DNA of 14,035 bases. Source: a virus. The DNA is taken from positions 1 through 14,035 of IMG/VR virus record IMGVR_UViG_3300005935_005627. The stretch is one strand, 5' to 3'. Below, one piece after another: positions 5,537 to 5,638 of the stretch. A program made the position numbers and the translations under genes. The notes beneath the pieces were generated by a model. That model had not been told where the DNA came from, made no database searches, and saw only the letters and a program-made list of their open reading frames with translations. Position 1 is the first letter of the stretch, and every line of letters starts with the position of its first letter.

Positions 5537-5638
5537 ACATAGACATGAACATAGACATGATGTCTATGTTCAATCAAAAATCAAAATACATAGGCACGAA
5601 CATAGACATCATGTTTATGTTCAATCAAAAATAAAAAT
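5537..5638. repeat. Two tandem 51-bp direct repeats, each containing repeated ACATAGACAT half-sites including an 11-bp-arm palindrome. Candidate operator array or iteron-type origin element.
   Basis: Repeat 1: ACATAGACATGAACATAGACATGATGTCTATGTTCAATCAAAAATCAAAAT. Repeat 2: ACATAGGCACGAACATAGACATCATGTTTATGTTCAATCAAAAATAAAAAT. In repeat 1, AACATAGACAT-G-ATGTCTATGTT (5548-5570) is a perfect inverted repeat. Lies immediately upstream of ATG 5645. Confidence 0.6.

Follow-up and report, generated by a model that had tools for sequence, protein, structure and literature searches.

The subject of this analysis is a pair of tandem 51-nucleotide (nt) repeats in a viral sequence of 14,035 nt (positions 1 to 14,035 of the IMG/VR record IMGVR_UViG_3300005935_005627; hereafter the window). 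The window is about 31% G+C, carries nearly all of its genes on the same strand and is phage-like. The repeats lie in the spacer immediately upstream of a gene that begins at position 5645 (gene 5645), and the cassette is ordered as a short leader open reading frame (ORF) with an in-frame amber codon, the repeat-holding spacer, gene 5645 itself, which encodes a conserved protein of 105 amino acids (aa), and a suppressor tRNA gene (Table 1). An earlier note, made without database searches, had read the repeats as an operator array or an iteron origin; we take it to be right in placing a regulatory element upstream of gene 5645, while its iteron reading finds no support and the DNA operator is kept as a disfavoured rival.

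Table 1. Coordinates of the leader, the repeat array and the adjoining genes in the window.
Feature	Coordinates	Strand	Description
PTH2-like peptidyl-tRNA hydrolase gene	4942..5283	+	True start ATG 4942; in-frame TAG 4948-4950; MI-TAG-IKKLYVITRRDL...
Leader mini-ORF	5484..5522	+	MKAHW-(amber 5499-5501)-INPRPP-stop (5520-5522); 12 codons
Closing helix, 5′ strand (T-box)	5523..5536	+	GGTATTATTTTTAT; first base directly 3′ of the leader stop codon
Repeat unit 1	5535..5585	+	Direct copy ACATAGACAT 5537-5546; hairpin arms of 13 nt, 5546-5558 / 5560-5572; A-rich tail
Repeat unit 2	5586..5636	+	Degenerate direct copy ACATAGGCAC 5588-5597; hairpin 5598-5609 / 5611-5622 with one G·U pair
Closing helix, 3′ strand (A-box)	5631..5644	+	ATAAAAATAATATC; A-rich; last base adjoins the ATG of gene 5645
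Conserved 105-aa gene (gene 5645)	5645..5962	+	Three-helix model; predicted local distance difference test (pLDDT) 88
G+C-rich hairpin	5968..5986	+	GTGGGG-TGTGATT-CCCCAC; between gene 5645 and the tRNA gene; conserved in L001
Amber-suppressor tRNA gene, anticodon CUA	5991..6064	+	Found by ARAGORN; Rfam tRNA 59.1 bits

Architecture of the tandem repeats

Tandem Repeats Finder reported a period of 51 nt with 2.1 copies, 90% matches and a score of 175 at 5535-5639, and a repeat search delimited the two units of Table 1, which are 90% identical to each other. The two 51-bp direct repeats of the earlier note are thereby confirmed, as is their place immediately upstream of gene 5645 (the array ends 8 nt before the ATG). 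Each unit had also been said to hold two direct copies and one inverted copy of a half-site, and this non-random arrangement is real: unit 1 has exact ACATAGACAT at 5537 and 5549 on the plus strand and at 5560-5569 on the minus strand, and unit 2 has one exact copy, at 5600, and two degenerate ones, namely ACATAGGCAC with two mismatches and the inverted copy ACATAAACAT with one. The palindrome described in unit 1 is perfect, although its arms measure 13 nt and not 11 bp. All four exact copies of ACATAGACAT fall inside about 75 bp (5537-5609) and none occurs elsewhere in the 14-kb window, in keeping with the earlier statement that nothing else there looks like the array; the genome search that the earlier note had suggested covered 31.1 kb of this phage (two overlapping stretches of a 40-kb contig) and, outside the array, turned up no further exact site, only scattered single 10-mers with one mismatch. 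An exact-pattern scan of IMG/VR for the palindrome returned no match.

Folded alone, the hairpin of unit 1 is predicted at -14.5 kcal/mol and that of unit 2 at -11.8 kcal/mol. The two palindromes are mutually complementary over 26 nt (96%), and two folds are open to the duplicated array, one with a local hairpin in each unit (-37.1 kcal/mol) and one in which the units form a 26-bp duplex with each other (-48.9 kcal/mol). The array is bracketed by a perfect 12-nt inverted repeat (5525-5536 / 5631-5642) that belongs to a closing helix described below; this helix is kept in both folds, and the A-rich tail of unit 2 continues into its 3′ strand. The inter-unit duplex (5546-5623) is nearly perfect, whereas the stems in relatives with a single module are just 10-11 bp; an RNA duplex of 26 bp is long enough to serve as an RNase III substrate. 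Two repeat units are present in all 14 contigs (from 12 samples) that encode an identical 105-aa protein, and these contigs, at least 99.8% identical in this region, represent one near-clonal population and so carry no information on whether the copy number is stable.

The next relatives of the gene 5645 protein (84%, 82% and 68% identity) have the same spacer without the repeat. More distant relatives carry a single module of the same build and different sequence, in which an 11-nt arm is preceded by its direct copy and followed, after a single base, by its inverted copy. Every relative examined has one module or none.

Two further observations concern the letters of the units. A 29-codon ORF at 5544-5633 (MNIDMMSMFNQKSKYIGTNIDIMFMFNQK) crosses both units, because 51 is a multiple of three, and stops 11 nt 5′ of the gene 5645 ATG; we considered it as a second small ORF and rejected it, similar short ORFs in some relatives being without conservation. 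Each direct copy of the motif also contains a UAG (ACA-UAG-ACA; 5540, 5552, 5591 and 5603), and locus L017 has UUAGA five times. These UAG-bearing copies complement the suppressor tRNA's anticodon loop, a match that is probably coincidence because most relatives carry GGACA instead.

An iteron-type origin, at which the repeats would bind an initiator and mark a replication start, appears very improbable. Direct repeats in an A+T-rich intergenic region are what such an origin would show, but there are only two units, and the cumulative GC skew, in which the earlier note had proposed to look for a switch, climbs monotonically from 0.13 to 9.46 along the window and does not turn at 5.5 kb. The neighbours (the PTH2-like, 66-aa and 105-aa genes and the tRNA) include no match to a replication-initiator family, and dozens of phages keep this fixed position between leader ORF and start codon, although most of them lack the repeat.

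The amber leader ORF, the closing helix and the loop hairpins

Gene 5645 belongs to a 105-aa family with many metagenomic relatives, whose loci (L001-L136) include phage genomes or contigs of 200-360 kb. Most of the approximately 140 loci that extend far enough have a suppressor tRNA gene no more than a few kilobases away, often right next to the family gene; its anticodon is CUA or, in L059, L111 and L114, UUA.

Ahead of the repeats, the leader ORF reads ATG AAA GCA CAT TGG TAG ATT AAT CCC CGA CCC CCA TAA. Its counterparts in relatives follow the pattern M-x(1-4)-TAG-I-x-x-R/K-P/G-P-stop, with five to eight sense codons separating the internal from the final stop. Surveying 73 distinct upstream regions, with a limit of 200 nt and no requirement for the final proline, we found a Pro-ending amber mini-ORF in 64 and a mini-ORF without this ending as the sole candidate in 2; the pattern was not matched in the other 7, two of which are merely cut by the 200-nt limit and two of which have this ORF with TAA, not TAG, as the internal stop. 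The density of such ORFs was 3.16 per kb upstream of the gene versus 0.021 per kb elsewhere in the same loci, an enrichment of about 150-fold. Scanning IMG/VR with the leader-ORF DNA pattern retrieved two loci already in the set and four without the cassette.

Codons beyond the TAG vary synonymously among relatives, arginine being written as AGA, CGA, CGT, AGG, CGG or CGC and proline with all four CCN codons, and the ending Arg-(Pro/Gly)-Pro-stop is conserved in the leader peptides; comparison of these sequences places the mini-ORF under coding constraint that extends past its internal stop. Conservation of the leader as an RNA structure instead of a coding sequence was considered and dropped, given that its Pro and Arg codons vary synonymously. 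The internal stop also tracks the linked tRNA, with TAG accompanying CUA in 45 loci, TAA accompanying UUA in 2 and mixed pairs in none, so that stop codon and anticodon are matched across these loci. The leader ORF comes with a start context or Shine-Dalgarno site of its own, and relatives that use Shine-Dalgarno sequences have AAGGAG on the leader ORF and no Shine-Dalgarno on the main gene. From the synonymous variation, the match of stop to anticodon, the enrichment and the placement of the Shine-Dalgarno, we conclude at the level of comparative sequence analysis that the linked suppressor tRNA carries translation of the mini-ORF past its internal stop. Gene callers miss it because of the in-frame TAG, and what an annotation presents as a repeat-rich intergenic region beside a suppressor tRNA may hide a translated 12-codon ORF.

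The closing helix joins the end of this leader to the start of gene 5645, its A-box spanning the A-rich translation initiation region of the gene. All 14 pairs between T-box and A-box are present in the minimum free energy (MFE) structure, and the whole leader folds at -49.4 kcal/mol with z = -8. Relatives keep the complementarity with different sequences (GTTTATTTTTGTT/AACAAAAATAAAC, TGATTATTTCTTTA/TAAAGAAATAATCA and TGAATTGAT/ATCAATTCA). The mean pairing energy was -9.2 kcal/mol for cognate strands and -4.3 kcal/mol for non-cognate strands taken from different loci, and none of 5000 permutations reached the cognate mean; the result was the same with 45 non-redundant representatives. The helix is part of the MFE structure in 51 of 64 distinct loci, its 5′ strand starting between -3 and +3 nt from the leader stop in all 51 and its 3′ strand ending between -2 and +1 nt from the ATG in 36. 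Among 27 distinct helices, for which a script counted the pairs at each rung on structure-anchored strands, every rung shows at least three pair types, and exchange of partners leaves just 54% of positions paired. Both the co-variation and the geometry of the closing helix are shown by these comparisons.

In an equilibrium model, the A-box is paired in 99% of free RNA and equally with a ribosome at the TAG, compared with 7-10% when a ribosome is at the TAA; this last state was modelled by masking 5523-5535, which lowers A-box pairing from 0.99 to 0.07. The same model gives closure of this helix, which consists of A/U pairs only, of 0.99 with the native interior and 0.76 ± 0.35 with shuffled interiors. 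A terminator ending in the U-rich strand was also considered and dropped, there being no hairpin upstream of that strand. No intrinsic terminator was found on the plus strand between 4800 and 6300, and the hairpins of the repeats are followed by A-rich sequence. Against the families of Rfam 15, only tRNA reached its gathering score, and the best of the others were far below (e.g., TwoAYGGAY with 25 bits against 43).

Inside the closing helix, the hairpins of the modules show compensatory changes of their own. Alignment of ten units from nine phages gave 91.8% paired cells, with changes on both sides in 6 of 11 pairs, and none of 500 shuffles matched the score. One stem position runs through the series G-C, G-U and A-U among the ten units. 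The window has AGACA where relatives have GGACA, and the opposite arm is changed to compensate.

A proposed suppression-gated switch and its rivals

We favour, with confidence a little above even, a reading in which translation of gene 5645 is controlled by a leader stem-loop, itself gated by amber suppression, and the repeats represent a duplication of its apical portion. The mRNA would carry the leader ORF, with its amber codon in frame, and presumably gene 5645 as well. Past the leader stop, the 14-nt U-rich strand would pair with the 14-nt A-rich strand and hide the ribosome-loading region. A ribosome halted at the amber codon would stand 21 nt short of the helix and leave it untouched; judged by the known ribosome footprint, the gap of five to eight codons in relatives should be about enough to keep an amber-stalled ribosome off the helix. 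Readthrough via the phage's own downstream suppressor tRNA would instead bring the ribosome to the final stop, where the Arg-Pro/Gly-Pro ending probably slows release. A C-terminal proline is expected to have this effect, and the analogy with TnaC likewise suggests a pause at the Pro-stop. The ribosome held there would lie on the U-rich strand and free the start region, and the gene 5645 product would be made only once amber suppression works. The loop hairpins, one in relatives and two here, would keep the strands of the closing helix together, acting as structure and not as binding sites, and the second unit would be a lineage-specific duplication that also allows the 26-bp inter-unit duplex. 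These functional steps, including the on/off outcome of the switch, we infer from sequence.

Translational control by leader peptides is well known, and stop-codon suppression as the signal would be a new input. In the literature searched, coverage of which was incomplete, we found no description of an amber leader ORF, of the closing helix or of a 105-aa family by suppressor tRNAs. One likeness is to the attenuation of ermC, cat and cmlA, in which a short leader ORF precedes a helix that sequesters the downstream start and is opened by a ribosome held in the leader. The input proposed here differs, being readthrough of an in-frame stop and not an antibiotic, as does the holding site, which would be the leader's final stop after a Pro-ending peptide; the helix, moreover, links the leader stop codon directly to the gene start codon. 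In prfB, which encodes release factor 2 (RF2), an early in-frame stop likewise senses termination versus alternative decoding, but by a +1 frameshift within its own gene that senses RF2, whereas suppression here would be by a phage tRNA and the output would be the unmasking of a separate downstream gene. The tnaC leader also encodes a short peptide with a conserved Trp and a C-terminal Pro, and a stall at its stop codon controls downstream expression; TnaC, however, senses free tryptophan via Rho-dependent transcription termination, the two leaders have no sequence relationship, the Trp-Pro spacing differs and many relatives of the leader studied here lack the Trp. In the cauliflower mosaic virus shunt, as here, a large stem separates the end of a short ORF, at its base on one side, from the next start site, at its base on the other. 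The shunt belongs to a eukaryotic, scanning-dependent system; the likeness is geometric only, and simple unmasking explains the present locus more economically.

Several observations weigh against the switch. The closing helix is not clear in the MFE structure of 13 of the 64 loci, and RNAalifold, run on a MAFFT alignment of 22 leaders, returned no consensus structure; this failure arises because the register of the helix differs among subtypes, and support for the helix accordingly comes from the structure-anchored and partner-swap (cognate versus non-cognate) tests. Strand-asymmetry tests gave no preference for the plus strand: being U-rich, the reverse strand has the slightly better fold, and interior wobble mismatches (3 versus 1) are too few to count. 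The same tests did not uphold G·U pairs as proof of a plus-strand RNA, and the assignment to that strand rests on the anchoring of the helix to a stop codon and a start codon. The position that closes the hairpin loop keeps its complementarity, although an RNA hairpin could not form this pair. The arm's direct copy, whose spacing of 12 nt is constant in many relatives, takes part in no pair of the predicted fold. A promoter inside the spacer would put the leader ORF and the gene on separate mRNAs, and the U-rich strand of some relatives (TATTTTTG) matches the Bacteroidetes -7 promoter consensus. In the model, finally, one unit closes the helix as well as two, so that no gain from the duplication is demonstrated.

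Part of this evidence would suit a DNA operator array, in which a dimeric or tetrameric phage regulator binds the direct and inverted ACATAGACAT sites in double-stranded DNA and controls transcription into gene 5645 and the suppressor tRNA gene, thereby timing the code switch. We regard this rival, which is compatible with the RNA helix, as unlikely. The direct copy changes together with the hairpin arm in each phage, yet remains unpaired in the predicted RNA fold, and looks like a protein-binding feature of DNA or RNA; with the repeated loop motifs of other subfamilies (below), it makes the strongest case for such a role. The complementarity retained at the loop-closing position points the same way. 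The layout of two direct sites and one inverted site with 12-nt spacing recurs with other sequences in L015, L021, L023, L024, L030, L057 and L080, while L017 has five direct copies. In the window, the repeated sites and the palindrome with its perfect 13-nt arms exceed chance. The likeness of the U-rich strand to a Bacteroidetes -7 box in some relatives would also fit a promoter there; in the window this box is degenerate, and a sigma-70 scan of the repeat gave only weak matches of 9 of 12. The sites of ribbon-helix-helix proteins such as omega of pSM19035 are comparably short and combine two direct sites with one inverted site, but in the omega arrays 7-bp heptads adjoin one another at promoters and the gene of the repressor is close by, whereas the sites here are of 11-12 nt and occur at one locus only, and no DNA-binding protein was detected beside them.

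Other evidence speaks against a DNA operator. The exact motif is absent from the rest of the 31 kb, and relatives of the gene 5645 protein with 82-84% identity lack the sites altogether. Searches of Pfam, PHROG and NCBIfam found no helix-turn-helix (HTH) or other DNA-binding family in the neighbouring genes, which agrees with the earlier note's remark that no obvious HTH regulator adjoins the array. Neither of the regulators that it nominated gains support: the gene 5645 protein has a three-helix model, no HTH and no family or fold match, and the family of the 66-aa acidic gene precedes both repeat-bearing and repeat-free spacers in relatives, where upstream and neighbouring genes vary independently of spacer type. 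The stem series of GC, GU and AU is the usual path of an RNA helix, and the palindrome with its flanks behaves as an RNA structure anchored on stop and start codons.

The same repeated sites could act in the mRNA, with an RNA-binding protein, possibly the 105-aa product, locking the leader closed or open and providing feedback over the gate; to this RNA operator, too, we assign a low probability. Short repeated motifs are typical of multimeric RNA-binding regulators. Motif repeats are common in the loops of other leader subfamilies of unrelated sequence, including 12-nt GGACA units, 13-nt TTACAAAATGTAA units in L099 and L037 and 7-nt GCGAATY units in L046 and L053. Against it, the motif differs among phages with very similar 105-aa proteins, the exchange of AGACA for GGACA with compensation in the opposite arm argues for pairing and not for base-specific contact, and no RNA-binding fold was detected in the 105-aa protein.

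Neutral duplication is another account of the second unit: replication slippage would have copied one 51-nt module, and the extra copy would be tolerated because it sits in a variable loop. The single module, or none, in the relatives examined is consistent with this, as are the equal closure of the helix by one unit in the model and the 10% divergence that the units have already reached. Both palindromes are nevertheless kept, and the 26-bp duplex lowers the fold from -37 to -49 kcal/mol; the presence of two units in all 14 contigs from 12 samples points the same way, weakly, these contigs being one near-clonal population. We consider a tandem state with no function of its own quite improbable.

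Beyond the suppression-gated switch favoured for this locus, the leader may belong to a genetic-code checkpoint common to many phages that recode TAG or TAA, an extension that we put forward tentatively and hold to be possible, if somewhat doubtful. The leader would gate a 105-aa effector of the code switch, acting for example on a release factor, the ribosome or late transcription, and the loop motifs, duplicated here, would be feedback sites bound by this effector or by another factor. Phages that reassign a stop codon must time the switch from the standard code to their own, and how this switch is sensed and timed is presented as an open question in the literature on such phages (10.1101/2021.08.26.457843; PMC10879173). 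If the proposal holds, the leader with its helix would be a built-in, direct sensor of suppression. The 105-aa family, by its place near a suppressor tRNA gene in most loci, is a candidate component of the code-change machinery, one that may so far have gone unrecognised.

Phage setting and neighbouring genes

Comparison of the whole window with 50,697 phage records by megablast identified no close relative among deposited phage genomes, and matches in genome collections were mis-binned phage contigs. None of 24 window genes checked uses TAG as its terminal stop. In the PTH2-like gene, TAG is the third codon; when it is read as sense, the Pfam PTH2 match covers model positions 2-113 of 115 and scores 42.4 bits instead of 35.8. 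L001, L081, L098, L021, L080 and L100 share this M-x-TAG start. The phage accordingly translates TAG, a capacity already known for phages (10.1101/2021.08.26.457843). The suppressor tRNA(CUA), the in-frame TAG codons in genes and the lack of TAG stops in the window are shared with the recoded phages and their code change modules (Borges et al.), for which the literature describes suppressor tRNAs, tRNA synthetases, release factors and tRNA-processing (theta) ribozymes (10.1101/2021.08.26.457843; PMC10879173).

Upstream of the PTH2-like gene, an HNH/NUMOD3 homing endonuclease ORF (4297-4938) is in frame with a fragment that precedes it, MT-TAG-INHKLIIITRRDLHPGYQAVHK, the two together lying at 4195-4938. 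This fragment is a second PTH2 5′ end and has an amber codon too; it seems that the endonuclease gene either inserted into the start of the PTH2 gene or duplicated that start. The PTH2-like gene begins with ATG ATA TAG (4942-4950), as do the leader ORFs of relatives L037, L038 and L039, and these starts are reminiscent of the lambda bar minigenes, which have two codons (AUG AUA stop) and cause peptidyl-tRNA drop-off in cells short of peptidyl-tRNA hydrolase. In several relatives the leader directly follows a peptidyl-tRNA hydrolase gene, and the genome has another PTH2 gene further along.

The 105-aa protein has no match in Pfam, PHROG or NCBIfam; sequence comparison related it to no solved structure, and its model gave no significant fold match. 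Between its gene and the tRNA gene, the G+C-rich hairpin of Table 1 may be a tRNA processing signal; a terminator scan scored it on the opposite strand only. A listed ORF of 175 aa (6006-6533) has its TTG start inside the tRNA gene; on identical contigs, gene callers place the start at about 6081, for a product of 150 aa.

Elsewhere in the window, an 805-aa ORF (165-2582) has major vault protein domains (Pfam MVP_shoulder, 3.5e-27; Vault_3, 5.4e-12) together with a weak SPFH/Band 7 match, and its protein has no PHROG match. The stretch 9307-13468 and the contig beyond it (L143) have genes of NAD salvage and nucleotide metabolism, encoding dCMP deaminase, NAD synthase and an isochorismatase-type nicotinamidase, followed further on by nicotinate phosphoribosyltransferase (NAPRTase) and a nucleotidyltransferase; the phage also encodes a TonB-dependent receptor, a radical SAM protein and several GIY-YIG/HNH homing endonucleases. 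On the same phage contig, seven tRNA genes are spread across the first 7.2 kb, and 2.2 kb (L146, 4989-7209) is without a called gene, a gap in which genes may be broken by in-frame TAG.

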